DNA from: Nymphaea colorata
Lineage: Eukaryota
Assembly (NCBI RefSeq): GCF_008831285.2
Contig: NC_045138.2
Coordinates: 43,214,001-43,278,000, forward strand
Length of the DNA: 64,000 bases
Direction: 5' to 3'
Shown: in pieces, positions 4,419-63,409 of the stretch
How positions within the stretch are numbered: position 1 is the first letter of the stretch
Layout of the letters: every line of letters begins with the position of its first letter
Notes under the pieces: model-generated
The model's database searches: none
Seen by the model: the letters and a program-made list of their open reading frames with translations, nothing else
Told to the model about the DNA's origin: nothing
Made by a program: the position numbers and the translations under genes

Positions 4419-5711
4419 TTAGTAGATAGATGCATCAAACCTTGGTTCATAGAAGGTGACTTGACTGCTCCATGACTGAAGAACACAACCAGCAATCCAA
4501 GACCATGCCTTCCTGTCAATGTCATAAAGCAGACCTTTGCCCTGATTCCATGATGTAAAGCAGATCAAATTATCTTGCCCAAAGCATTCGAATCGTTCGG
4601 CTGATAATCTCAACAGAGATTTAAATAGCCTCTGCGGCATTCTACCTATCTCTACCCACACAGTATTGCTATGATCCAATTCCCAAATCCTCATACTCTG
4701 ATGGGTGCTGTACATACCTATCCTTCCAACCAGAAACAAACGCTTGTACGTGCCAGCAACAAGGTAACCATCTAAAAGAGATTTAGGAAATTTGACTGGG
4801 ATGTGCTCCCAATAGCCTGTATCAAGTCTATACATCATCAACCCCGGCGGCGAAAGGGCCTCAAGATAGATTCTAGAATCACAAAATGCTATTTTGGAAG
4901 AACAGAGGTTAACCGCAGGCATTACTTGATGCAGAGACCAACTATTTGATTTGGAATCATATACCTCAGTGGGCAAAGTTCTCTCTGCATATATATCGCT
5001 TGTAGCAATCACTTTGAAGGATCTGTCCTCTCTATCAACAACCAATATCAGATGGCGCTGCTGATTATGATGCATAGTTGGTAATGCACGCCAAGTTTGA
5101 GTAAGAGGGTTACAAACTACAGTTTTGAAACACAACCCGTCTAACCCTGAAAAGCATACCAGGCCACCTGAAGAGCCAACCAACAAAAACGCCCACTCGG
5201 GCAGGAAGGAAAATGGGAGCTTGTACCATGTTTTGAGCGGCAAGCTGAAAACCGAGCACTGAGGAGTCTGCAGATTTTTCCAAAACGCAAGAAGGCAAGG
5301 GCCATGAGAAGGGACTCGCCCATGAAACTTGATGAAACCAACGTCAGATATAATCGAATTCCAGCGTTTACATACAGAGCGCAGCTTAAAAAGCACAAAC
5401 GGAGGCACCCTTGCCAGGATTTCATTCAGAAGGTCCTCAGGAAGGAAAGCCCAAATGCTGTCTTCCATTTGGATGTCAAGGTGAACAATTCTACTGAATG
5501 AAGCCACCACCTCTTCATCAAAACCCCGAGGTTTTGTTTTGAATACTTTCTGTCGCGAGGGACTACGGCTGCCACTTCGCCCAGAAGTCGTTCGTTTCAG
5601 GCGGTCTCCATCTGAAGCTGGTTCACTTCTCCCTGAGACCTGCCCCCTGCAACCTACTCGGCACCCAGACTCTTCATCTGCCCGAGCTTCTAGAACTAGT
5701 TTGCCATCCAT
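4419..5711 (-). CDS. F-box/kelch-repeat protein, At5g15710-like (430 aa from the first ATG)
   Basis: Uninterrupted ORF with F-box motif '[36 protein letters not shown]' followed by kelch/beta-propeller-like repeats ending '[11 protein letters not shown]'; recognisably similar to Arabidopsis At5g15710. First ATG is at 5711-5709, just after an acceptor-like TTTGTCAG, so an upstream exon is possible. Confidence 0.93.
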
Positions 5712-6956
5712 GGTCCGCTTCCCTGACAAACAAAGAAATCAGGAAAAGGAATTAATTTACCCCGAATGTCAAAATTGAAAAGACAAACAAAGGAAAAAGT
5801 AAAAAGAAAACTCAAACTTTCGCTCAGGAGGGAGGGGAAACGGGTAGACGTTCAACCCCAATCGAAAACCCTAAAACGCAAAACCAAGAAATGAAAATTT
5901 GAGTTGAAATTTTAGTATTTTGGAGCTGACGTTTTCTGATAAGCAATAGATAGACTAGTTTATGGCAAAAAGGGAAAGCTCCGATCCAATCAACTTTACC
6001 ATAAATCTTTAGAACGTTATTGAAAAGGAAAAAGTAGAAGAAAATTCTTAACACTGAACTGTCATCTAAACGAGCCGGTTAGAAAAACCTACGAAAGCCG
6101 GAACAGCATGATTTCTGACGTATAAGGACCCCAATATCAGAAAAATCACGACGACAGAAATTAAAACTGCTCAAAGATACGAAACCAAACCAAACCAAAC
6201 AGGAAAGCATATCTTTAAGAACGAAGAACGAGGCACCAAATAAAAACAACAATAGAAGCTGCGACACCTTTTCAAAACCTTCAAAAATCTCAGGAGAGGT
6301 TTGTGACATCCTAAGATTGGAAACGGAAAAGGAAGTCCTGTAAGAAACAAAGGAACTTGCAAATTTTGTATTCTAAATTTGGAGAGATAAAAAGGCGAGG
6401 TTCAGAAAACCTAATTTTGGTTGACGAGCTCCGGGCAATTTCATGAAGTGATAAAAGAAAAACAACGCGAAAACTACAAAGTCGACTGCGAAATCGATTT
6501 CGAAAGACGCAATTAGAGGGTACCTTTCTTCCCTTGCACGGTTTGGTTTTTCGAACCAGATAGGGGAAGGGAGGACAGAGGAACGCTCTCAAATCTTAAT
6601 CTGTATGTGGCCGGCCGGAGTGGCCCTCAAACAAAATAATAGAGACCCCGTTTTCCCTCTGATGGGTTCAACCACAGTTTGGATCTTATTCCATATTTAA
6701 TCGGACTATATGATCTGGTTCAAAAAATTAATCCGAACCTGGTTAGACGTCAAAGTAACCCAGTATTTGCATCATCAAAATTTTCATACCAAAACAATTT
6801 TGATGGATGCCTGACTCTAACGGGTATCTGATATGTAAACCATGTTTGGCGTGCTGTTTGTAGCCATTTTGAAGCTTATAAGCAACACGTGTTAGGTAAT
6901 TTCTCAAACCGTGTATATTGTGTTGAATCATTGAATCAACTGAAAACATAATATGA

Positions 6957-12572: not shown

Positions 12573-15309
12573 ATGATATATGTAAAATTCATACCAATTA
12601 TCTTAAGAGGCAATGATTAATCACAATCTCTTATACATCTTCCTTAATCTAAGTTACATCATCATCAACGTTGTCACCTCAACACTTGGCAAATTTTGTG
12701 AATCTATATCACAATACTTATTGTCCTTAACATCGATTCCCAAGAGATCATACAGATCTCCAAGTCTTGTTTTAGTAACATGTCAATCATGTCCAATGAG
12801 ATCTTCTACATAAAAAAAAAAAACTTGTTGTGCTTGAGATGCTAGGGTGCACAGTTCTTCTCCCATATATCTGAACTTGATGCTGATATATGTGAATCTA
12901 AATTTGTCTTGTTTAATCCCATGATCATGTGAACTAAGTATATTGTATCATTCACATTTGAATAACACATACTCTAATGTCTCATTATAGCTAACCTCTA
13001 TAATGTCCATGACTAATTGATAATATGCAACTTCACAAATCACAGGTTCTTAACTCTTATGCCCGAAAAACTAGAAGCATGTACATTAACAAGTACACCA
13101 TTGTTTTGGTATGTCATATTTTTATCATTGTTTCTTATATGAAATCTAAACCCAATAATTGTAAAGCCTTTATATTTGAATGCAAATTTTCCTAGAAATT
13201 GAGACAACCTAACAATGCCTCCTAGTATATGCCAACTTTGATTGTCATGTATTTGGCAAAGCTGTCACATTGAAGATATAACTATTAGATGTAATAGACT
13301 TAATTCAATAAAACAAGGTAACATACTTATAAAATACAGAAACATGCATGATTTTGAAATAAATCTGGAAATGTTCCTTTGTGAACATGTTCAATGTTAT
13401 GAGGGCTTCTAGAGCATTGACATTGAACCAATCTCTAGCAATGCCTATACAGATGCATATAAGTTAATATGCTAATAAAACACACATCTATTGAATCAGT
13501 TAACATATGCATGTGTAATTCATACATTTGCACAAGATATAGCAGCACTATCATATGATTGAATAGTATATAATTGTGCACTTGTTGATGGATTAAGGAG
13601 TTAAGAATAATAAACATTGATGCGCCTAATGGACAACCTGCTCTAATGACATTGGATTTATCATCAAAATCTACGACATTTTCATTGTTTCTTTCTGGCC
13701 TATTGAAACATGTCTCTGTATCTCAAAAATAAAATGTCTGTTTTTTTATTCCATTTCCATAGTAGCATCAAATAAATGTTTGCTTTTTACATCTATGAGT
13801 CGTTGAAAGCTAACGACGATGTCCCATATAACACATTTTTCTGCTTTGCTTCTGTGTGCAACCATGTACATCTATGTAACAAATTGGACAAGCTAGTTTG
13901 CCTTTTGTATAGTATCATATCTTGGAAATTCATTTATAGTCTTCATCAAAGTAACACAGAGTTGAAATTATTCCCTTTTGTGAACATTAAATGTATATGT
14001 CCATCATTCCATAATTTCAATAATTCATCTACAAGTGGTTGAGACATGCATTTATTTTGTGTGTGTTATGGGCAATTGCTCTAGATGTCACTAATGATGA
14101 ATGGACATAAGGTTGCTTCATACATACTCAAGGTGACAGATTGTATGTGACCAAAAAATAGGTTAGATACTATAAGTTGAGCTCAATGTTCCACAGGGAT
14201 TGAAACCATCGCTTGCTAAACCCAGTCAAATATTTCGAGGGCCTGCTGCAAATGAAAAGTGAATTTCATCAAAGCTCTTCCATGCAACACCATTTGCTAG
14301 GTGTCTCAACACTTTTTGAGTTTCATCATGCTATGTCATCTATCGTACAACATCAAACATTATGAAAAATCTCGTCAATCACAGTGTAATTGGAAAGTAA
14401 TGCAAGTCGTCCTAGGTGACTTTTTGCCTTTTCTAGATGCCTTATTGTCAACTTGATGTTCGACTTCTTTCCATTGCAGTCCATCACATCTATCACATGT
14501 ATCTTTTGAGGTAGACTCATTCCTACATAACATGTAGTTATTTGGAGACATCAATTTTCTTGTAATCAAAACCCAAATCTATAAAGTCCTTTTAGGTTCA
14601 TAAACAATATTTGGTAACTGCACTCCTACAAAGAAAGCTTTGAGCAATAGTTCAAATAACATAATGAATCTTGTTGTTCCACCCACTTAGAATCTTTATA
14701 AGAAACAAGTGGACTAGGAAAGCTAATTTTTGCAGATCTTTTGCATCCTACATAAAGCTCCTCTTTTGCATTTCTAATCAATCTTTCATACAAGTTGTCG
14801 TCTTGTCCATCTTCATTAGCACAATTGTTAGGCCTGTTTGAAGCTGGTACATTTTCATGCATGTTAAAGACATCTTCAACCCCTTCATGCATGTCTTCAG
14901 CTTCAGCATCAGCTGGTTGGTTATCTGCAATCGTAGGTGGCAAAATTGATTCCCCATGAAAATGCCAGCAAACATGTCTCCATGAATCCATAGCATACAA
15001 TATTATCAACTGCATCTTTGACAGTTTAAGACCTAAAATTATTGCATTTCATGCAAAGACATCTCATCCTTCCATTGACTATGATATTATTTATTGCATT
15101 TCATACAAAAACATCTCATTCTTTCATTGACTATGGTATTATTGGTAATTAAAAGTCAATAAAATTGTGGAGCCCATTCAAATGTTCTACAAGATCTCTT
15201 CTCTTTGTGATCCAACCTTGACCTCCCATATTCTACTCTTCAACGTAAATACAAAAATCTAAGAATGTGTTAAATACCTATGAGGTCAATTCTATGAATA
15301 GATATTGAA

Positions 15310-15412
<103 letters not shown>

Positions 15413-15666
15413 AAATCCATCCTTCGTTACTCCAAACCCAGCTAAGCAAAATCGCTCAACTGGTGTGGGGCATTCATTTTTTTATTAAAAAAATGAAAAC
15501 AAGACGCTCAAAGCAGAGCATTGAGTGCCGTGGGAGGGGGAGGCATAAAAATAAAAATAAATGATGGGGAGCTGGCGAAGGGTATTGGCAGGGTGGTGGG
15601 AGGTTGCCACCTGACGGAGGTGACAACCTCCCCATCTAATGACCTCCCATTTTTTTCATTCATTTA

Positions 15667-15880
15667 GGATGCGTTTGATGCACAGGGAAGAATTTAACGT
15701 GGAAAATTTACCATGGTAAATTTTTTTGGAAAAAAAAAACAGGATGAAATTTAACCCTCTTCCGATTTGAGGTCATGTTTGATGCACAAGAAGAATTTAA
15801 CCTGGTAATTTTAACCCTGTTTGATACACAATGAAGAATTTAACCTGGTAAATTTAACCATGTTTGATGCACATGATAAA
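15667..15880. repeat. Harbinger subterminal repeat array
   Basis: About four copies of (T/C)GTTTGAT(G/A)CACA..GAAGAATTTAAC(C/G)TGG, each beginning with the TIR core GTTTGAT. Confidence 0.85.
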
Positions 15881-16549
15881 AAATTTAGGAGACTTTTTTT
15901 AGAAATGAAATAAGTTGTATGACAACATTGTGGCCTTTCAAGAAGAACCCAACTCAACAATAAATAAAAAACATCCAAGTGAACTAACATCCAACTTAAC
16001 ATGGTGATGACTTAAATAACACGTTCTGGATATTATTCACAATGTTGTTTGTAACCTGAAAATCGTTGCATATTGGAAACCAACGGCAAATGAGATCAAG
16101 TCTAACTATGTAAGGCGTAAGAATGAGTTTTGAAGTCACATAAGCAGATGCCATCAAAGTCGTTGCATATTGGAAAAATACATAAACAGATGCCATCAAT
16201 GTTGTTTGCATCCCTTTCATACAAGCAATCGATCCAGCCCCATTTGTATATGAAGAAAAATACATTAAATAAACTGTAATGGAAATCCAGCCTATAAACA
16301 AAAGGCTTCACCATGGTGTCAATTTGTGATGCAATTGGTAACAAGTAGTCAACTTGACAATGATTAACTAATATTCATCCAACACTGCAACCTGTATGAA
16401 AGTTTAAAAACATTCACCACAACTTGTTGTCCCATCCAGTACATAAGTTTAACGACTACAGATCCCACAAATAAAACCGTCACAGACTGCAACCTGTATG
16501 AAAGTTTAAAACATTCACCAAATATTGGTGTCCCATCCAGTACATAAGT

Positions 16550-16876
16550 TTAACGAGTACAGATCCAACAAAGAAAACAAGTAGTAACAAAACAAGCAAT
16601 CAAGAAAAGTGGAATGCGAGTCCGTCCATTCGTCTTCATCACTTCTTTCTCTTCCTTTGCGTTGACATCGACAATGTCCAATGGCCTACATAATTGCACA
16701 CTGTATTTGTTGTGGAGATATTCATTCATGTGATATTGAGCTACTTCAAAGGTATGAAATGATCTGAAGAGGGCACCCTTGTATCGATACACTAATGGTT
16801 GGCACTGCTCCCAACTGTTGTATATTCCTCGTGACGTACCTTCGAAGACGACATAGTACTTTTGGTGAGGCATCAT
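16550..16876 (-). CDS. Harbinger-borne 108-aa protein: RNase H1 N-terminal hybrid-binding (Cauli_VI/viroplasmin-like) domain plus C-terminal hydrophobic tail
   Basis: 'KYYVVFEGTSRGIYNSWEQCQPLVYRYKGALFRSFHTFEVA' matches the HBD pattern [FY]Y.V..G...G[IV][YF].[ST]W..C...V..[YF]..A.[YF]..F.[TS]...A. C-terminus is 'IPLFLIACFVTTCFLCWICTR*'. No stops or frameshifts; no RNase H catalytic domain. Expression is not shown. Confidence 0.8.
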   Translation of the reverse strand: MMPHQKYYVVFEGTSRGIYNSWEQCQPLVYRYKGALFRSFHTFEVAQYHMNEYLHNKYSVQLCRPLDIVDVNAKEEKEVMKTNGRTRIPLFLIACFVTTCFLCWICTR

Positions 16877-18130
16877 CTTCGTTCTCCTGTTGAAAACAAA
16901 ACAAATGTTAAACAACCACATGCAACAATGGTAAAGATAGATAAAATAAACTTACTATTCAATTGATAATCTGCAAACATTTGATTTGTTATAGTTGTTC
17001 TCAAGGGATTGTTGCTTCCCCGCTGGAGTGTTTGACTTTCAATTTCCGGTTCGCTTACGACAAAATTATCAATTGAAGGTGCGTCCTCATCACCAAATTG
17101 TTCAGCATTTGGATTGTGGTCAATTATGAAGTTGTGCAATACACATGTAGCAAGAACAATTTGAGCTTGTTTTTTGAATGGATACTGCACTTGCATTTTC
17201 AATATTGGAAAACGTGCTTTCAACATGCCAAAAGCTCTTTCTACTGTATTTCAGAGTGATGAATGCCTATGGTTGAATAATTCTTGTGGAGTTCTAGGTC
17301 TGCGTGCCCCCTGGGTGTCAAATTCTGACATATGATAACGATGTCCTCGATAAGGTGTTAGGAAACCAACAATGTTTGGATAACCCCCATCAGTAAGATA
17401 GTATTTGCCTATAATTGAACACACATTATGTAAACATTTGCACCTTTTTTTAAAAAGTAATGGATTGGTTGGTTGAAGTACGTACCTTTGGGGACCACAA
17501 ATGGATCCACTGGATGATCAAGTGCATTGTATAATACCCTTGAGTCTGTCGCACTTCTTTCCCATCCTGCCAAAACGTAGTGGAATCGACTGTCGAATCC
17601 AACTACAGCCATGACATTTTGCGAAATAAATCCTTTTCTATTATGAAATCTTGATTGCTCTGATGCTGCGACCCATGCAGGTACATGAGTGCCATCAATT
17701 GCTCCTAAACAATCCTAGATCCATATGTGCAAGTTAGTCATGTTGTATGTTGGATGTTGTACGCATTTTGTTTACTTTACAATTATGAAAATACCTGGAA
17801 ATATGGAAAGAATCGCTTCGATCTCTGAATTTTAGTTGGCATGTCATCGTTGGGCCGCTGGACAAAATCCTTACCCATTATACATATTGCTCGTAGTACG
17901 CAACTGACATACTTACTTATTGTTTGTCCAGAATGTTGAAAAGTATTCTGTGTGGCACGATTCCGTTCATTGTGTCCAATTGTCAACAAAAAAAATAGCT
18001 ACTTGTTCTTCTATGCTAATGTCACGAGCATCCTCCAATAATTTTCTACTTCTTAGAGTGTTACATAATGTCTGATATGTGTGTTGATCCATACGGAGTA
18101 AGTTGGTACAATTTCTAGGATGACCGTGAA
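16873..18130 (-). pseudogene. PIF/Harbinger DDE transposase (HARBI1-like), multi-exon, disrupted
   Basis: Motifs 'LLRMDQHTYQTLCNTLR', 'FQHSGQTISKY', 'DCLGAIDGTHV', 'GWERSATDSRVL', 'KYYLTDGGY', 'FNHRHSSL*NTVERAFGMLKARFPIL', 'TCVLHNFI'. GT-AG introns at ~17794-17716, ~17484-17410 and 16955-16887. Lesions: +1 T in a homopolymer (~17990), CGA>TGA at 17251-17253, and a missing N-terminus. Confidence 0.92.
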
Positions 18131-18615
18131 TCGCCAAAGACCTCGGCGAACTCGTCAAAGTATCTCCATAACTAGGGACCTATGTACTTTTTTCTGTTCG
18201 GGTATTTATGAAAAATATCATGTGTTCAAATGAACATGTAGTAAAGACATGTTAGAGATAACCTAATAGTAATATCTCTATAATGTACCTCAATATAGTC
18301 ATTCCATACTTGTGGGTCGACTTCAATACACTTGTTGATTGGGTCATACCCAAACCCGCTTGTATTCAAAATTTCTTTCATGACTGTCAAGTTTGGTTTT
18401 GAGTACTTCAATTTGTTTTTTATTTTCTCTTTACTGAATTCTGGACCGAATTTGTCTATCATGCCTTTTTCAATTACTGTATACGCTTTGGACTTCAATC
18501 CTCCACCAGATTTCATACCAGGGATGCGGGATTGCTCCACAAGAAGTTGGACTAAATAGTCCATTTGCACTTCAGTCCACGTAAGATTCTCCCTCGATGG
18601 ACCGCTGTCTTCCAT
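18128..18615 (-). pseudogene. Harbinger ORF1, Myb/SANT-like DNA-binding protein, truncated
   Basis: 'LTWTEVQMDYLVQLLVEQ...KEKIKNKLK...LNTSGFGYDPINKCIEVDPQVWNDYIE' (Myb_DNA-bind_3-like), donor GAG|GTACAT at 18288. The second exon 'KYPNRKKYIGP*LWRYFDEFAEVFGDS' has a damaged acceptor and a stop, then runs directly into transposase sequence. Confidence 0.88.
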
Positions 18616-20312
18616 GGTAATAATAACTTGGACAATATTTCTTGACAACTAGATATTTGAGTTTGAAGAATCTTGCATAACATGGACCAAGGAAAGACAC
18701 AAATGAATGATCAACAAAAAAAATGGAGGAGCCGTAAAACACATATCATATATGAAGACAATGGAACGAAGGTGATGAACACTCATAACAACATCAACAT
18801 CCAAAATGGAGAATTAACTAAAATAACATCCAGCACAGTGATGAACACTCATATAATACAAACCACTAACCCGCAGGAATTCCAAAATTCATGAATCTCA
18901 TTGACAACATCACTGTAATCACCTTACAATACAAAAGGAGAAACGAAGATTGTTCAGTGCACCCAGAGAAAGAGAAAGAAGGCACTTTTTCTCTTTTACA
19001 AGTCTACACAAGTGGATAAGATGTGAAACGATACACTCTTTTTCCATGTATCTGATTTCTGATATACAAGCAAAAAAGATGTTAACAATGAGCAGCAAAT
19101 GATTGATTGTTACAAAGAGTCAAATATAATCTTAGAAAAAGGAGAGCCACAAAGCTGATGCAGCCATATCCACAAGCGGAAAAAGGAAAACCACATCCAC
19201 GAAAGAGGCAATTACCATAGAACCTATTCATCTACTACGAAGTGAAGTAGCACCCTAAGAACAGTGAGCAAATCAGATTAATGAGGTCTTTTGGAAGGGA
19301 AGTTGTTTCAACACTTCTGCATCAAAGACTTCAAAACAAGGGGGCAGTCAGCTGGTATATCCGGCCGGAGACCAGCCTTCTATGCTCTGCTAAAATCGCA
19401 ACAAAGGGGATTTGAGAAATACCAGAAGTTGAGAAAACGAGGGCAATAGCAACAGCGACGGCGGATCGGAGGAGCGGCGACCGTGGCATTGGCGAATGCT
19501 GCCCTGTCTTCCCTGCCGGTCAGATGCCAGAAATGAATATATTAGGGAAACAAAGAAAGGGAGAAAAGGAGGGCATCGGAGAGCAAGAGAGAAAGGGAGA
19601 AAGAGAGAAAGGGAGATGCCATAGAACCTGTGAGCGACGGTGATTAGGGCACTGATTTGGGAGAAGACGAGGGCATCAGAGTGCAAGAGAGAAAGGGGGA
19701 AAGATCACCGGCAGAGCAGCGGAGCGGCGACGGTGAGTGCGGCGATGGCGACGGTGGGAGCGGCCTCTTGTGCGACAGTGAGAAGGCGACGGGGTCGAGC
19801 GAGGAGGAGCTGCGGGTGGAGGGAGGAAATGAGGGGGAAGGGTGTCGAGCGCGGGGGGAGAGGGCGTCGAGCGAGTGAAATTCCACCGGCTCGAAAGTCC
19901 GAGCTCGGAGCTTGGACTTTCAAGCGGGTGGAATTCCACCCGCTCCCATTTTGCGTTAAACGGGGTCAATTTCACCCTGTTTGATGCAATTTTAGTCGAG
20001 CGGGTGAAATTTCACCTGCCCGTACCATTTTTTCGGAAAAAAAGAACTTCAACCGGGCAATCAAATGCCCCCTTATGAAAAAAAGCGAGAGGAAGGGTGG
20101 CCATCGCCTCCCCCGGGTAGCGACCTACCACAACCCTGCCATCGCAGTCATGACCATCAGTGACGGCAGGGTGGCGGGAGGTCACTGCCCAGGGGATGTG
20201 ACGTTTGCTGCCGCTCAACACTCAGGGCGTCGAGGAGCACTTTTTTTTTTTAGTTTTTAAAGTAAAAAACACAGGCTGTCTTTCTTGGCTGGTAGTTGCA
20301 TCGTAATAGATG

Positions 20313-36708: not shown

Positions 36709-39700
36709 GAGCTTGGTTTGTTGTTGGACTATCATAGAACCTCCCCATCAATCCTGGCTGCATCGCCTGAGACCCTCTGCGTTGCCCGTGTCTGCTGCTG
36801 CCCTCTGCTCCTCCGGCGCCGCCTGATCTCTTGCCTGACGTTGTTGCTTTTACCCAACGGAGTCACCTCCCACGTTCTGCCCGACATCGCCACTTCCGCT
36901 GCTGCTATTTGCTGTCACTGGACTGCCTTGGCAATGCTTGCAGAAGCTCCCTGCCGCTAATCGTCATCCCGCTGCCGCTGCCTTCATCTGTCTATCTGCC
37001 ATCGATGTCCTGTGCTGTTGTTGGTGCCCTTTGTTGATGTCAGTGCCGTTTTTTTGTTGCTGCAGCCTGGTTTGTGATCATGGCAGCGTCTTCCTCTTCG
37101 ACCATCAGCACTGATCAGACTGAAATGGGGGCTTATAGAACTGAGAATGTTCCGTTTCAGGTTACTACCATCCGTCTTACCAAGGAAAACTATCTTAAGT
37201 GGTCTACCGCCTTCACTATGGGTATAGCTGGTCGAGGCCATATTGCCTATGTGAATGGGAGTAAGGTTGAACCTACTGAAAATAGTATGGCTTGGGATAC
37301 TTGGTTTCTTGAGAACAACCAAGTAAAAATGTGGATTGTTAATTCAGTATCCTCAGACATTCAACCTCTCATTCTTCGTAAGAAAACTGCGAGAGATATG
37401 TGGATTATTTTTGAACAGATGTATGGTCAAAAGAAGAGAAAAGTTTGTGTGTATCAACTAATGAAGGACTTGTATGCTCTTCGACAAGGGGATCTCTCAG
37501 TCGCTGATTTCTACGCCGCATTAAAATCTAAGTGGGAGAATCTTGACTACCATTCTGATGATATCTGGAGTTGTCCTCATGACCAGATGCATTATATGAC
37601 CAGGGAGTGGGAGAATAGGATATTCCTTTTATTAGCCAGACTGAACGATGAATTCAAAAATATAAGGAGTCAGATTCTTAACTCTGAAGAATCATTCAGT
37701 ATTGAAGATGTTTATTCCCGTGTTGAAGCTGAAGAGCAAAGGCGGCTGGACATAAATGGGAGAAAGGGGGATCACATGTCTCACAATGAACAGTCAGCCT
37801 TTGTTAGTCGTGCCTCTATGGGAACTGCCCGTTCCTCCCATAAATGTACTCACCGCAAAAAACTAGGTCATGTTACGGAGTTTTGTTGGGACCAGCATCT
37901 AGAAAAGAAGAATAGTAGGGGGAGGTCTTCTGGTGGGAAGAAGCCTGTTTCGAATGCAATGAACCCTAGTGACGGTAAATTTTCTATTTCTACGGAACAG
38001 ATTTGTGAGCTGCGAGCATATTTGAGCCAGATTGATGTTGGTCAGGCAGACATGTCAGATGAGGTGCAGGTCAATCAGGCACTGGCCGTTTCGGGTGAAA
38101 AAGGTACTTCTTGCATGGGGGAGTGGATTGTTGATAACGGTGCCACTCATCACATGACTGGCAACCCCAAACTCTTTCATGACTACAAGCTATCCTCGGG
38201 AAAGGAACGTGTATCCCTTGCCGATGGTTCCTTTACCTCTGTGGCAAGAAAAGGGAGTCTTTATTTGTTGAACAATTTTTTAGTGCATGGAGCCTTGCAT
38301 GTTCCTCATCTTCCCTTAAATCTTTTATCTATTAGAAAGATTACCAAGGAACTGAACTGTGAACTTATCTTTTTTGAAAAACGTTGTGTTTTGTAGGAAT
38401 TGGTGACAAGGAAGAAAATTGGAATTGGTTTGCTGTCTGATGGTTTCTATCAGCTTCCTATACGTGTTGCTAGAGCTCTTATGTCAGTAGTTAGCAGGAC
38501 AGGGAAGAAGAAGGAAGAGTGTTGTCAGTTATTTTTGTATTGGCATGAACACGTTGGTCATCTCCCTTTTGGGATTTTGAAACAATTGTTCCTTAAATTA
38601 TGTTCCAGTTTGAACATTTCCATGTTATCTTGTGATGTGTGTCAGTTTGCAAAGCATGTTAGAGCTTCATATCAAATCTTAAATAGTTATGCTAATAAAG
38701 CTTTCTCCTTGATTCATTCTGATGTGTGGGGGCCCTCAGATATTCATTCTCGTGGTGGTTTTCAGTATTTTATGACTTTCATAGATGACTATTCAAGGTG
38801 TACTTTTGTTTATCTATTGAAAGACTGTAGCGAAGTGCCTCATATTATAGAAACCTTCATCCTCCTAGTGGAAAACCAGTATGGTGGGTCTGTCAAGACA
38901 TTCTGGTCCGATAATGCTCATGAGTATATGTGTCTCACTGTCGAGGAATTCCTTCGAAAGAGGGGGATTCTTCATGAGACATCATGTAGTTATACACCCC
39001 CTCAAAATGGAGTTGCTGAAAGGAAAAACCGTCAGTTACTTAATGTCACCAGAGCTTTATTGTTCCAAATGAATCTTCCAAAATATTATTGGGGAGATGT
39101 GGTTATTACTAGTGCCTATTTGATTAATCGCATGCCTAGTCGAGTGCTAAATGGTCGTACACCCTACTCCATGCTTCTAGGGAGTAGCCAACCTTTTCAC
39201 ATTCCTCCTCGTGTCTTTGGATGTGTGTTTCATTCATGACCACAGCCCGAATGTGAAAAAACTTGACCCCAAATCACTTGAGAGAATATTTATTGGGTAT
39301 TCTCCTACTCAAAATTCACATTGCCAAGGATGTCACATTCTTGGAACATATGTCTTATTTTGGTGAGAATTCTCTTCAGAGGGAGAAGTCAATGTCTAAG
39401 GAAGAGTATTCTCCAAGTCAGGAAATTCAGTTTACAGATTTTTTGGATTACAGGCACAAAGAAAATTGATCTGTTGAGGTGCTTGGAAAAGAAGAAGATG
39501 GGACGTCTGTTGAGGTGCATGAACAGGAAAGGGAGGGAGAGTGTTCTATGGGGATAGAAAGAGAATGCAATCGTCTATTTGGGCAGGTGTATTCTAGGAG
39601 AAGATTTTGTACTGACAAGGTGATTGATGGGGATAAGTCTACTCCGAATCTCAATCCTACTTCTTCCTTGGATGACCCAAGTCATGCTCAGAAGCAGCCT

Positions 39701-47519: not shown

Positions 47520-49660
47520 CGTTACAAGTTTTATCACCCAACTAATAAGTCATTTTTTAGATAAAAATTGTTCATTTTTTTGAGGATGTTGAGTTTGGGG
47601 AAGAAGATAAAGTAGAAAACATTGCCTTTGAGGATGATCCAGATTCTCCTCATATAAATGTTCTAGGAAATGGTCAAGCCTTTATTCGTAAAATTATTCT
47701 ATCAACAAATTTGGATGAAGGCCAGGACGATGATATTGTTATTCAAACCACCAAAGAACAAACCCAACAATATCAAAAAAGTCAAGTAGAGGTGCCACTT
47801 ACGAGGTAGGCTAGAGAAAGGAGAAGTGTTGCTTCAAATGACTATGTTATCTATCTCCAAGAATATCAAAATGGTACAGACTTAATGTAAGATGGTCTAA
47901 TGAAGTTCCAACAATGCAATACAAAGTTCCAAATCTAAAAAATGGTTAGATGACATGAATGACAAGATAAAGTCTATGATGAATAATGATGTGGAGGACA
48001 TTGTCTTGTTACCTAAAGGTGTGAAACTCATTAGTTGTAAATGGATACTTAAAACCAAAAGAGATTCATCATATAACATTAAAAGTTATAAAAAACACTG
48101 TGTGGCAAAAGATTTCACTAATAAAGAATAAATTAATTATACATAGATATTCTCTCTAGTTTCATTGAAAAACTCTTATATAATTATTATGGCACTAGTG
48201 GCCCATTTTGATTTATAACTACAGTACATATGTAAAGATAGTGTCTCAAAGGCAACATTCATGAGACAATATATATGGTGAACTAGAAAATTTTGTTTCA
48301 AGAAATGCAAAGGAAATGGTTTGTAAACTTATGAAATTCTTTTATAACATAAAACCATTTTCCTATCAATGGTATCACAAATTTCATTAGGTTGTTCATT
48401 TGTCTTTAAGACTAATATGCTTGATGCATGCAAATATTATAAGTTCTGTGCACTGAATTTGTTTTTCTAGTCTTGTATGTCGATAATATATTGGTTGCAA
48501 GCAAAGGTTTAGACTTATTGCACAAAACCAAGAGATTTATATTGACAAAATTTGAAATAAATGATCTTGGTATTGTCTCTTTTGTATTAAAGATCTAGTT
48601 ATTTCTAGATCATTTGATAAGAAATTCATCTATGCCCAAGTTTCTCATTAATGGTAGCACAAATTTCATCAGGTTGTGGTTTCATTTGACTTTGAAACTA
48701 ATTGTGGTTTCATTTGACTTTGAAACTAATATGGCTGATGAATGTGTGTATTATAAGTTTCTGTGGGGGTAAATTTGTTTTTCTAGTCATGTATGTAGAT
48801 GACATACTGCTTGCTAGTAACGATGTAAATTTTCTACACATAACCAAGAGATTTCTTTCAATAAAATTTCAAATAAAAGAGATCGATAATGTCTTTTTAT
48901 ATTACGGTTCTAAGTATTTCAAGGCCATTCTTGATATATTCTTAGATTATTATAAAAAAAGTGATATCGATAGGGTACTACAAATATATGTTGTAAAAGA
49001 ATGTAAACCAAGAGATACCTCTATTGTTGAGGGTGACAAATTCAATAATAGTCAGTGTATCAAGAATGAAGTTGAAACTAAAGGGATAGAAAGGATTCCA
49101 TATGCAACTTTGGGGAGTCTGGTATATGCTCAAGTCTATACTCGTCCAATCATTATATATATCATTGGAATATTGGGCACGTATCTAAGCAATTCTTGTA
49201 TGGATCATTGGAGAGTAACCAAAAGGGTAATGCAGTATCTATAAATAACAAAAGATTTCATGCTCATATATAGGAAATCATATTAGTTGGAGATCGTTGG
49301 ATACTCAGAGTCTGACTTTGATGGGTGTCAAAACATTCATAGATCCACTTGGGTTATATTTGGTGGTTGGAAGGGCTAGATCATAGAAAAGTGTTAAGTA
49401 GACACAAGTAGGTACTTCCACCATTGCAGCAGAGTTCATAACGTGTCATGACACATCCAATCATGTATATGACTTCAGAATTTTGTGATAGGGTTGTACA
49501 TTGCGAAAGACCTTTGAAGTTATTTAGTGACAATAATTCAACAGTTGAATATTATAATAATAGTTGTACTTCATCAAAGTAGTGCATATCAACATTAAGT
49601 TTTTGGTTATTAAAGAAAGAATATAAAATTTTGTCACTTGATTATGCAGGTTTAGTGGGA
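47520..49660 (+). mobile_element. Decayed Ty1/copia RT-RNase H fragment with a duplicated RT segment
   Basis: 'FFEDVEFG', 'KGVKLISCKWILKTKRDS', 'FVFLVMYVDDILLASND', 'IPYATLGSLVYAQVYTRP', 'HWRVTKRVMQYL', 'GYSESDFDG', 'STIAAEFI'. Confidence 0.85.
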
Positions 49661-59384: not shown

Positions 59385-62300
59385 ATGGCTGAAAACAGTA
59401 AATCTGAAGGGTCCACATGGCTGGGAATTCATTCTCTTATGGAACTACGATGAAACTTAATGGCTCAAATTATGAAATATGGTCTAGGGTATTCATAATG
59501 TCGGTGGCTGGTCATAGGAAGAAATATATTCTTGAGGAGGATGAACCTATTGAGAAAAAATGAATATTTGCTGCGTGGGATGAAGATAATTATATTGTTA
59601 TGTCTTGGATTATGAATAGTGAGGAGTCTCATATAGCCCCAACTATTGCATATTATACCAAGGCCAAGGATATGTGGTCTTTCTTGAAAAAGACATACTC
59701 GCATGCCACTAATGTAATCAAAATCCTACAACTAGAAGAGGAGTTATGCAACATTCGACAAGGGGATCAGGACCTATCTCAATATTTTGCTACTTTGACT
59801 GCTGCATATGAACGGTTAAAGGCTCTTTGTCCACCTTGCCAGCATTGTTATGCATTACACGTTGAGACTTGTATGGTGGCGAAGTTTTTATCTGGCCTAT
59901 CTTTAGAATACTCTGTGGCAAAGTCTCAAATTCTAACAGGCAGTGAACTTCCAGATTTAGCAGACACGTATAATAGGCTGAGTCGTTTTGCAGCCACTCT
60001 TCCTCAGACTACGCATGACACACCAGTCTCTGCACTTGTGATATCAGGAGGACGGGGCCCTAGTTCTTTTGGAGGCACTAGGGAACGTGGTACAGGCCGT
60101 GGTGCTGGACGTGGCAGATTTCAGTGCTCTTATTGTGGCAAAATTGGTCATCTAGAGGATCGTTGTTGGGACAAACATCCTCATCTCAGGTCTAATGTTT
60201 CCTCTGAACGTGGTGGAGGTAGAATCACCACAAGCAGAGGTCCTTCTTCATCCCAAGCAACTCATTCAAAGGCAACAATATCTATGGTTGAGTCTTCTAC
60301 TGATCCTTCTATATCTATGTCATATTCTCTTAACCTAAGTAAGGATGAATATGATCGTGTTCTTGCTCAGAGGTCTGCCTCTACATCTACCAATGCTGCT
60401 GCTGTAGATTCAGCATTCTCTGTTGGTGATCCTACTGCTGATCCAGGTATGACATGGATGATAGACTCGGGCGCTTCTAGACATTGTTGTAATCAACCAC
60501 AAAATTTTTCATCATTTGTCAGATTTTCTACACCACAGCATGTTAAGCTGGCTGATGGCAAGTTGTCCCCTGTTTTGGGTAGCGGTGATATTTACCTTCC
60601 ACATTTAGGCACTATTACACATGTGCTATATGTTCCTCAGTTTCCTGTTAATTTGATATTTGTGAAGCAGAGCGTGAGGGCCTTTATTTTTTGTCAATTC
60701 CAGTTGATGTTGCTGCATCTTCAATCCCTTCCAAGCCTTCTCCCTTCCAATGGCATCTCAGACTGGGTCATCCTTCAGTACCAAAACTTCGTCGCATGTT
60801 TCCAGATATTCCTGCATCAGAGTCCTTCTTATGTGATGTCTGTCAGCTGGGCAAGCATACACGGAGCAGCTTTCCTTCGAGTCAGAGTCCTTTTGATCTC
60901 ATTCATGTGGATGTATGGGTCCTAGTCAGGTTCCTTTTCGGTCATGTTTTCGATATTATCTTGTTCTAGTTGATGATTTTACTAGAGTCAGTTGGGTCTT
61001 CTTGTTAAGGGAAAGATCTGAAGTCATATGTATTCTTCAAAAATTTATCAAGGAAAGAAAAACTCAGTTTGGACTCATTGTCCAAAATATTCGCACTGAT
61101 AATGCTCTTGAATTCAAGTCTTCCATTCTACTTCAGTTTTATGCCGACCATGGAATTCGACCTCAATATACTTGTCCACATACGTCCCAACAGAATGGTG
61201 TAGCCGAACGCAAACATCGGCAACTCCTAAACGTAACTCGTACCCTCATGTTACATTCTCACATGCCTGCCTATTTTTGGGGTGATGCTATTCTTACTGC
61301 GTGTTACCTCATTAATAGACCATATTCCAATTCAAATTCTATATCCAGGGCGTTCATTATTTCATTTACCTCCCAAAGTTTTTGGATGCACTTGCTTTGC
61401 ACATATCCTAGGCCCGAACAAAAGCAAACTTGCTGCCCAAGCCATCAAATGTATCTTTATTGGCTATTCAGTCAATCAAAAGGGATACAAATGCTTTGAT
61501 CCCTTGACCAAGAAAGACATTATCAGTGCAGATGTTACCTTCTTTGAGTCTCGTCCTTATTTCCCTCCGTCAAGTCCCTCTTCATTTGAGATGCATGCAC
61601 CTATACCACTTCCTATTCCACCAGTGTCACTTGAGTCATTTCCATCATCTCAACCTAAGTCACATGAACGTTTTCTTGAGCCTCCGTTGGTTTACACTCG
61701 TCGCCTAGGTCCCTCTCTCAACCGTCCACCAGCATCGTCTCAAGAGGTAAGCTCTACTGATAAGACTGACTCAGGTTTAAGTGATGACTATTCTGCAGCA
61801 GATCTCCCTATTGCTATTTGCAAGGGCAAGCAACAGTGTACCTTACATCCTATATCTAATTCTGTCTCTACTGCTCATCTGAGTACACGCTTAGTACAGT
61901 TTGATCAAGTTCTATCTAGTCATGTTATCCCGTCCTCGCACCATCACGCCCTGTTAGATCCACATTGGCGACAAGCTATGCAGGAGGAAATGGATGCTCT
62001 TCTTTCTCGGGAGACTTGGGATTTGGTAGACCCCCCACCACGCTGTGATGTGGTTGGCTCACGATGGGTATTCACCATCAAGTATCATTCTGATGGGTCA
62101 GTTGAAAGGTTCAAGGCCCGTCTTGTCGCAAAAGGGTATACTCAGACTTATGGTGTTGACTTCTTTGAGACCTTTTCGCCTGTGGCTCGGTTGGGCACTA
62201 TTCGCTTGATTATCTCTCTTGCTGTCCAACGAGAGTGGCCTCTTTTTCAATTGGATGTAAAAAATTCCTTTCTGTATGGAGACCTTTCTGAAATCGTTTA

Positions 62301-63409
62301 TATGCAGCAACTACCTGGTTTTGAGCGACAAGGGGAGTGTTCCAAGGTATGCAAGTTAAAGAAGGCTATTTATGGACTCAAACAGAGTCCCCGTGCATGG
62401 TTCCAAAAGCTTACTGAAGTGTTATCTAAGTGTGGATTTCGCGGATCCCAGCTTGATCACTCATTGTTTATCAAGCGAGGCTCAGCAGGACTTGTGATAT
62501 TGATTGTCTACGTGGATGATATTGTTCTTACAGGGGAAAATGATCAAGAGATAGCTCAAACAAAGGAGTTTTTACAGCAACACTTTGTTACGAAAGACCT
62601 TGGACAACTTCGTTATTTTCTTGGTATTGAGGTGACTCATAGTAATAAAGGAGTTGTAGTGTCTCAAAGGAAATATGTTCTTGATCTTCTACAGGAAACG
62701 GGACTATTGGGGGCTAAACCTGCCACACTTCCCATGAATCCTCGCATTCATATACATGATGATGACTCAGAGCCGTTTGACTCTAGATCTTACAGATCTC
62801 TGATAGGGAAACTGTTATATTTGACTGTCACTCGTCCCGAAAAGTTCACTGGGATGCAGCTCTAATGATTGTAAGATACTTGAAATCAGCCCCGGGAAAG
62901 GGGCTATGGTTCAAGAAAGGAGAAAGTGTTGACATCGAGGCGTATAGTGATGCTGATTATGTTGGATCTGTAGATGACAAGAAGACTACTACCGGTTTTT
63001 GTGTCTTTGTGGGCAGTAATCTTATTTCCTGAAGGAGCAAGAAGCAGAATGTTGTGGCTCGTTCTAGTGCTGAGTCGGAATATAGGGCTATGGCTCAAAC
63101 TGCGGCTGAAATGTCATGGGTTAGATCACTACTTGTAGAGTTGGGTGTCTTAGTGAATCTCCCAATGAAGATGTATTGTGACAACAAGGCAGCTACATAT
63201 ATCGCTAACAATCCTGTCCTGAGAGGACTAAACACATTGAAGTGGATTGCCACTATATTCGGGACTTAGTTCAAGGAGGAATTGTTAGCACTATTCATGT
63301 CTCCTCAGAAGATCAGGCAGCAGATATTCTCACTAAAGCTCTTCCCATAGGCGATTTCCTGAGATGTTGTAACAAGCTGAGCATGATTGATATATATGCT
63401 CCAGCTTGA
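59385..63409 (+). pseudogene. Copia gag-pol polyprotein, disrupted by stops, frameshifts and small deletions
   Basis: Zinc knuckle 'CSYCGKIGHLEDRC', protease 'WMIDSGASRH', 'WHLRLGHP', integrase 'QQNGVAERKHR', RT 'LIVYVDDIV', RNase H 'ARSSAESEYR...ADIFTK'; split over ORFs 59600..60925, 60915..61499, 61282..62865 and 63054..63269. Confidence 0.93.

Follow-up and report, generated by a model that had tools for sequence, protein, structure and literature searches.

PIF/Harbinger elements are used as plant genome-engineering tools, and the extra genes carried by cut-and-paste elements, such as TnpA/TnpD of CACTA elements (made by alternative splicing) and the second ORFs of MULEs, are usually expressed via splicing. 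Plant PIF/Harbinger elements of the MtPH-M/DcMaster lineage and PePIF1 are 4 to 6 kb long and have short TIRs, a TAA duplication, a Myb/SANT ORF1 and then an intron-containing DDE transposase, according to the available text of PMC2213677 and PMC6327408. The short TIRs of PIF/Harbinger carry a G(N)5GTT motif (PMC2213677), and the elements are described with two ORFs in the accessible parts of four reports (PMC4482050, PMC2213677, PMC6327408, PMC9179366). Capture of ULP genes by plant DNA transposons and gene capture by grapevine PIFs have been reported (available text of PMC2528002), and an excerpt of another paper mentions a fungal helitron with a PF01693 gene (PMC4289320). A different kind of relation between two ORFs is found in SART1, caliciviruses and hypoviruses, in which stop and start codons share bases out of frame as AUGA and restarting needs an upstream TURBS or a stable downstream hairpin (PMC10275272, PMC5902531, PMC5972666). 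These sources describe reinitiation after long ORFs as very rare and, in plants, as dependent on the viral TAV (PMC5972666, PMC5902531); a TURBS or a hairpin of the SART1 type is what it otherwise needs (PMC10275272, PMC5972666, PMC5902531).

The element studied here lies on the minus strand of a 64,000-nucleotide stretch of Nymphaea colorata DNA (the window; Table 1) and is a PIF/Harbinger element with ORF1 upstream of the transposase. TAA flanks it on both sides (20075-20073 and 15666-15664) as a 3-bp target duplication. The termini match at 10 of 13 positions counted from the ends, the TIR motif is intact at the 15667 end and has one change at the 20072 end, and subterminal repeats are present (repeats D2, D7 and D9). 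Besides the Myb/SANT domain of ORF1, a DDE_Tnp_4 domain (PF13359; E-value of 3.4e−7, above the cut-off) is found in the last transposase exon, with a weaker match in exon 3. In contrast to the two-ORF plant PIF/Harbinger elements, to whose lineage we liken it by description and not by a tree, this element has a third ORF (ORF3) that shares the terminal exon of the transposase. CACTA, ULP-capturing and MULE elements likewise keep an accessory gene but belong to another superfamily and carry another domain. Our data give good support to a three-ORF PIF/Harbinger variant in which the terminal exon is shared. In open-access articles, we found no PIF/Harbinger element whose third ORF is of the RNase H1 N-terminal type, and none that uses stop-start coupling.

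Table 1. Positions of the features of the element within the window
Feature	Positions	Strand	Basis
PIF/Harbinger element, 4406 bp, decayed copy	15667..20072	-	termini, TAA, domains
ORF1 exon 1, Myb/SANT domain	18289..18615	-	PF12776 (Myb_DNA-bind_3), E-value 7.8e−14
ORF1 exon 2 remnant	18128..18207	-	acceptor CAT here, CAG in relatives
Junction left by an internal deletion of the ORF1 3' part and the transposase start	18125..18128	-	loose read ends
Transposase remnant; exons 18125-17795, 17714-17486, 17408-16956	16956..18125	-	three-frame translation, splice contexts
69-nt GT-AG intron, GTAAGT...CAACAG	16887..16955	-	in frame, stop-free; 5 reads of run X22
Start of shared terminal exon: 10 nt, ATG 16876-16874, overlapping TGA 16875-16873, second ATG 16873-16871	16871..16886	-	
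ORF3, 108 aa, intact	16550..16876	-	PF01693, structure model, hydropathy
Tandem duplication of about 101 bp, end of ORF3 and start of 3' untranslated region	16384..16578	-	repeats D4 and D19; 91% over 94 nt

The copy in the window is dead. Autonomy requires an intact ORF1 and an intact transposase, and neither is present: there is a deletion near 18126, one extra T near 17987-17990 that shifts the transposase frame (relatives have a 1-nt gap there), a premature TGA at 17253-17251 and a mutated ORF1 acceptor. The relatives' letter at the ORF1 exon 2 acceptor (position 18208) accounts for 501.7 of 540.4 in run X1 and 16.1 of 16.1 in run X17, and two X22 reads splice 18289 to the ORF1 exon 2 remnant. 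Reads and contigs of relatives diverge on either side of 18125-18128, one side continuing ORF1 and the other the transposase N terminus, and hence it is the window copy that has suffered a deletion; loose ends at this junction come from 20 and 20 reads in X22, from 826 reads at 18125 in X23 and from X1 contigs at 18128 and 18131. Due to the deletion, the frameshift and the premature stop, ribosomes from the transposase start cannot reach the overlap in this copy, and the question of coupling therefore concerns intact family members. ORF3 is intact although the other two genes are broken. The ATG of ORF1 lies 25 nt behind a candidate acceptor AG, a layout like that of ORF3. Outside the termini there is a 38-nt direct repeat (D11, 74%; 15587-15624 and 20165-20202), and given this repeat in its flanks the element may sit within another one.

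The sequence-only reading of this DNA had placed the transposase stop over the start codons of ORF3, and direct reading of the minus strand gives the same positions for the TGA and both ATGs. It was also right that one TGA ends the transposase whether the message is spliced (...NRERR*) or unspliced (...STGERR*), the 69-nt segment being in frame and stop-free, as were 24% of 20,000 shuffles of the intron. The proposed intron is real: five X22 reads join 16883 to 16955, and their letters correspond to exact excision of 69 nt with a family allele at 16884. The sequence-only reading overlooked the organizing feature of the locus, a conserved splice acceptor that lies 10 nt ahead of the ATG. ORF3 and the transposase stop lie in one terminal exon, entered via this acceptor from several upstream partners. 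ORF3 starts with an A at −3, and the stop and start codons are within 20 nt of each other and out of frame, as in TURBS-type geometry. Four nucleotides inside the intron is a second GT (16951), and splicing there would fuse the transposase in frame to ORF3.

Why then do stop and start overlap? Our preferred explanation, which we hold at a little less than even confidence, is that most ORF3 translation takes place on messages spliced into the shared acceptor by alternative routes or driven by the host, and that AUGA is a by-product of exon sharing. An element leader exon or a host exon would be spliced to the ORF3 acceptor with no intact transposase frame ahead, and ordinary scanning would reach the ORF3 ATG on such messages. 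The transposase would stop at the first stop codon of the shared exon, which ATG-A would supply. The ORF3 protein made in this way would bind RNA-DNA hybrids or duplex RNA, be tail-anchored in a membrane and serve the element as an accessory. The sequence-only reading had instead suggested translational coupling from a bicistronic message. In such termination-reinitiation, ribosomes would end the transposase at the UGA and restart at the overlapping AUG on a spliced dicistronic message, and ORF3 would be made at a fixed low ratio to the transposase. We consider this doubtful, and it could operate alongside alternative splicing, as could an in-frame fusion through the second GT.

The overlap alone is only mildly above chance, while the intact family-wide ORF3 and its acceptor are clearly non-random. 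In the window, 33% of ATGs have an A next, and 18% of stop triplets (1392 of 7595) share bases with an ATG. When an ATG was simulated 10 nt behind a shared acceptor with a random entry phase, an overlapping stop arose in 12% of 9429 trials (AUGA in 8%). By our own estimate, this chance rate of 8 to 12% gives a likelihood ratio of roughly 5 for coupling, a modest favor and not a compelling one. The 42 ATGs between the ORF1 start and ORF3 also speak for reinitiation; they rule out leaky scanning to ORF3 on the full message.

Three protein searches and one profile search collected 22 Nymphaea relatives, all of them predicted gene models and not transcripts; the nearest relative of ORF3 is from N. 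colorata and 88% identical. One model (P0248) has no ORF3 start, so start codons were counted over 21, and the scripted tree count took 20, with P0247 read separately. Every one of the 21 has Met1 and an A-initial codon 2 (M in 14, I in 5 and K in 2), and the protein sequences are thus compatible with AUGA throughout, as the sequence-only reading would expect. The other half, UGAUG, fared differently: the second ATG is missing in 7 of the 21, and a role for it is rejected on this ground. Conservation is judged from protein models and a difference table, in which none of the 40 listed rows out of 677 falls at 16871-16879; at the DNA level, a contig of run X1 (depth 259) spans 16789-16969 without a gap and differs at 8 letters. 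The invariance of AUGA, although expected from reinitiation, has little power, with 26 of 57 ORF3 columns unchanged on the 20-sequence tree and codon 2 changed only twice.

The relatives form two subfamilies, between which 18 of the 98 residues encoded by the last transposase exon are different. Their ORF3 sequences are identical at 65 of 108 residues, tail included (about 60%), and in both the frame is open and the domain and tail are retained. The second subfamily (P0246) shows the same donor and acceptor geometry, a further point in favor of reinitiation. With 22 relatives in two subfamilies, ORF3 is an integrated module and not a random capture, in agreement with the sequence-only reading. 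Could ORF3 still be an untranslated passenger, captured long ago in the transposase 3' untranslated region and kept by descent? Its translation is a prediction from sequence, 7 of the 11 listed substitutions between window and family in ORF3 alter the residue, and in plant DNA transposons, PIF among them, captured fragments of genes persist over many copies (available text of PMC2528002). We nevertheless find the passenger improbable: frame, domain and tail are kept between subfamilies, ORF3 has survived in a copy with two broken genes, stand-alone proteins with a similar domain and tail are known from elsewhere (P0107, P0112 and P0166), and all 30 of 30 Atlas matches carry PF01693, the top three being clusters of 98 to 116 aa, mostly from Streptophyta where known.

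Sixteen of the 21 gene models with an ORF3 start are extended upstream and spliced onto x-T-[T/M]-[K/M]-M. The codon for x can always end in G, and in 5 of the 16 it is M or W, which require G; the 16 models thus bear the signature of the acceptor seen in the window. There is almost no variation in the three residues ahead of Met1 (T in 16 of 16, T in 15 of 16 and K in 15 of 16). What lies ahead of them varies between the 5' region of the element (P0004, P0010 and P0016), pieces of host genes and transposase exons (5 of 16), in line with entry into the shared exon by alternative splicing. P0016 (RETICULATA-related) and P0247 (PPR), both from N. thermarum, are models in which host-gene pieces are spliced to the ORF3 exon; these chimeras are possibly due to exonization of an intronic element, or else artifacts of the predictor. 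The strong acceptor may create chimeric host transcripts where the element sits in introns.

The same models bear on a fusion, in which use of the +4 donor (the second GT of GTAAGT or GTACGT) would extend the transposase at its C terminus by the hybrid-binding domain and the tail. Five of the 16 extended models take this form (P0010, P0168, P0169, P0206 and P0246, the last a cluster of 7), the window permits it at both donors, and the near-invariant residues before Met1 would fit a translated junction. However, a GT at +5/+6 is part of the ordinary donor consensus and is to be expected there, and gene prediction is biased in favor of a single frame. The +4 donor is absent from the four listed RNA joins at the ORF3 acceptor. 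When the Atlas was queried with the P0246 sequence across the transposase-ORF3 junction, the matches (best 0.81) were transposase clusters only, none with both domains, and a search for longer homologues gave 11 matches, namely 9 from Nymphaea and 2 RNases H, and no fusion outside Nymphaea; both searches are weak evidence. Overall, we regard the fusion as unlikely, even more so than the passenger.

RNA data came from 4 of 24 runs, compared with positions 16000-19400 using about 6% of each raw run, and only listed joins were counted. In X22 (unstranded, 397 reads), five reads have the exact 69-nt excision, the depth inside the intron is 1, and the sole listed join at the ORF3 acceptor is to the transposase exon, by the same five reads. 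The depth of 11 to 17 over the last transposase exon is similar to that of 12 to 20 over ORF3, as expected of one message. In X17 (contigs; its RNA status is a guess), one contig with a depth of 8.65 joins the exon-3 donor to the ORF3 acceptor in the frame ending at the TGA. These canonical joins in both runs put the transposase frame on the stop codon, as coupling would require, and confirm, at the level of short-read junctions, splicing of transposase and ORF3 exons to each other in the frame ending at the overlap. The one-message pattern of X22, the compatibility of all 21 relatives with AUGA and the TGA common to spliced and unspliced frames all count against alternative splicing as the main source of ORF3. 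None of the joins listed in 16000-19400 connects a leader exon of the element to the ORF3 acceptor. On the other hand, two X17 contigs have other sequence ahead of the acceptor, and contig depth in this run, a weak measure, is 640 to 884 over two ORF3 bins versus 10 to 132 over the last transposase exon. That other upstream sequence is also joined to the ORF3 exon argues against coupling.

Run X23 (stranded, 4820 single mates) maps nearly all to the minus strand. In it, 38 reads lead from the last transposase exon into the ORF3 exon and another 3 lead there from exon 3, and the ORF3 exon starts 9 and not 10 nt before the ATG; owing to this shift of the acceptor by 1 nt, the transposase frame misses the TGA in all 41 reads, contrary to reinitiation. 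The three exon-3 reads carry a TAA in exon 3, and 41 reads lie inside the intron. Another 229 reads have loose ends at 16880, and no part of the element matches their consensus (agreement 0.62) well; set against 38 and 3 joined reads, they favor alternative splicing together with the conserved acceptor and the varied partners of the models. A single decayed copy, in which the overlap is lost, appears to be the source of the X23 signal, which may therefore say little about the active element. This copy is strongly expressed from the minus strand over 16456-17025 and 17824-18165 with a depth of up to 950. It also carries an additional in-frame ATG, located 6 nt ahead of ORF3, as well as unplaced upstream sequence.

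If reinitiation took place at this overlap, a TURBS-like or SART1-like fold would be expected, and neither was found in comparison with shuffles (z of 0.31 and −0.33 downstream and −0.01 upstream). Downstream of the overlap there is no SART1-type stable hairpin by these values. Upstream, the only GGGA is at −76 and there is no UGGGA. The AUGA base sharing is the same as in SART1 and the viruses; unlike those systems, this element has a splice acceptor 10 nt before the overlap that offers another route to the start codon. Even in plastids an AUGA overlap need not imply coupling (PMC3241655, in its accessible portion). As for the coupling proposed in the sequence-only reading, the exons are joined in the stopping frame and AUGA fits in 21 of 21 relatives, and these parts stand; the lack of a special fold, a chance level of about 12%, the other upstream partners and the broken transposase weigh against the rest, and reinitiation from the transposase start is impossible in the window copy. 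We think it possible, at odds clearly below those of alternative splicing, that a spliced dicistronic message and true reinitiation at the conserved AUGA make a membrane-tailed hybrid-binding protein in step with the transposase. If AUGA drives reinitiation after a long ORF, the element would provide a small test system of cellular origin for a process known in plants essentially from TAV-dependent viruses, and stop-restart translation would, if true, be new for a plant DNA transposon.

What might the ORF3 protein do? Its residues 6 to 47 (16861-16736) form the hybrid-binding domain of the RNase H1 N terminus (PF01693, E-value of 6e−15), and a structure model, in which the domain is predicted with confidence, continues with a disordered linker and a C-terminal helix. 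This helix is hydrophobic (approximately residues 89 to 107; hydropathy of 2.4 over 19 residues). The model has the three-strand, two-helix fold as well as the PF01693 motif, as do the RNase H1 N-terminal domains (3bsu, 1qhk), and superimposes on the human hybrid-binding domain 3bsu with an rmsd of 0.9 Å over 47 columns (E-value of 1.1e−3). The residues that match human Y29, W43, R52 and F58 are kept, and K59 is R or K. Compared to the human domain, ORF3 has S for K60 and L or V for R57, and an added hydrophobic tail. PF01693 is the sole Pfam domain in the 108 aa, and no catalytic RNase H domain is present in them. Since the aromatic and basic residues that match the human domain are mostly kept, binding to RNA-DNA hybrids or duplex RNA is predicted for ORF3, and we infer that it assists the element as a tail-anchored accessory protein. 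That a third gene for a domain binding nucleic-acid duplexes is conserved points to an accessory function, which may lie in R-loop or dsRNA handling, anti-silencing or regulation.

The TOR-binding dsR region of the caulimovirus TAV/P6 has the same 40-aa motif as ORF3 (available text of PMC5902531), and TAV models are the top viral fold matches to ORF3. Identity to plant-virus TAVs in the fold alignments is 16 to 35%, compared with about 54% to bacterial-type RNase HI N termini and 61% to P0107, and a TAV origin of ORF3 is rejected on this lower identity. TAV is a multidomain transactivator of 400 to 540 aa, of which ORF3 has a fifth of the length and the common motif only. A TAV-like role of ORF3 is a long shot. 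The boldest form of the coupling hypothesis, with the ORF3 protein itself promoting reinitiation as a TAV-like factor outside viruses, strikes us as highly improbable.

Small stand-alone PF01693 proteins appear to be common in land plants. They were found on short ENA contigs (P0107, P0112, P0157, P0166, P0167, P0170 and P0244) and in Lotus japonicus (P0176), and several have a hydrophobic, Cys-containing C-terminal tail like that of ORF3. Two with a similar tail, P0107 and P0112, are 61% and 54% identical to ORF3 over the domain. Together with the Atlas clusters, these sequences suggest a wide plant family of proteins with PF01693 and a tail, perhaps also transposon-borne. Scanning metagenomes produced 91 pattern matches and, from these, a single locus with an RNase HI of bacterial type that has no relevance here: in L001 (5423-6618), a purN-like gene and RNase HI, which has the same N-terminal domain, overlap by 4 nt, an arrangement that is ordinary in bacteria and unrelated to the element.

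Elsewhere in the window, a scan for sigma-70 promoters, a model not meant for plants, gave matches at chance level. Degenerate coding traces on the minus strand at 14000-15100, including an ORF at 14629-15048 without a Pfam match, resemble a CACTA transposase. By eye, two remnants of Ty1/copia-like retrotransposons with gag, integrase and RT-like frames are recognizable on the plus strand (37038-39239 and 59564-62865), and a further RT-like fragment lies at 48702-49244. An intact single-exon ORF of 430 aa at 4419-5738 on the minus strand looks F-box/kelch-like by eye.
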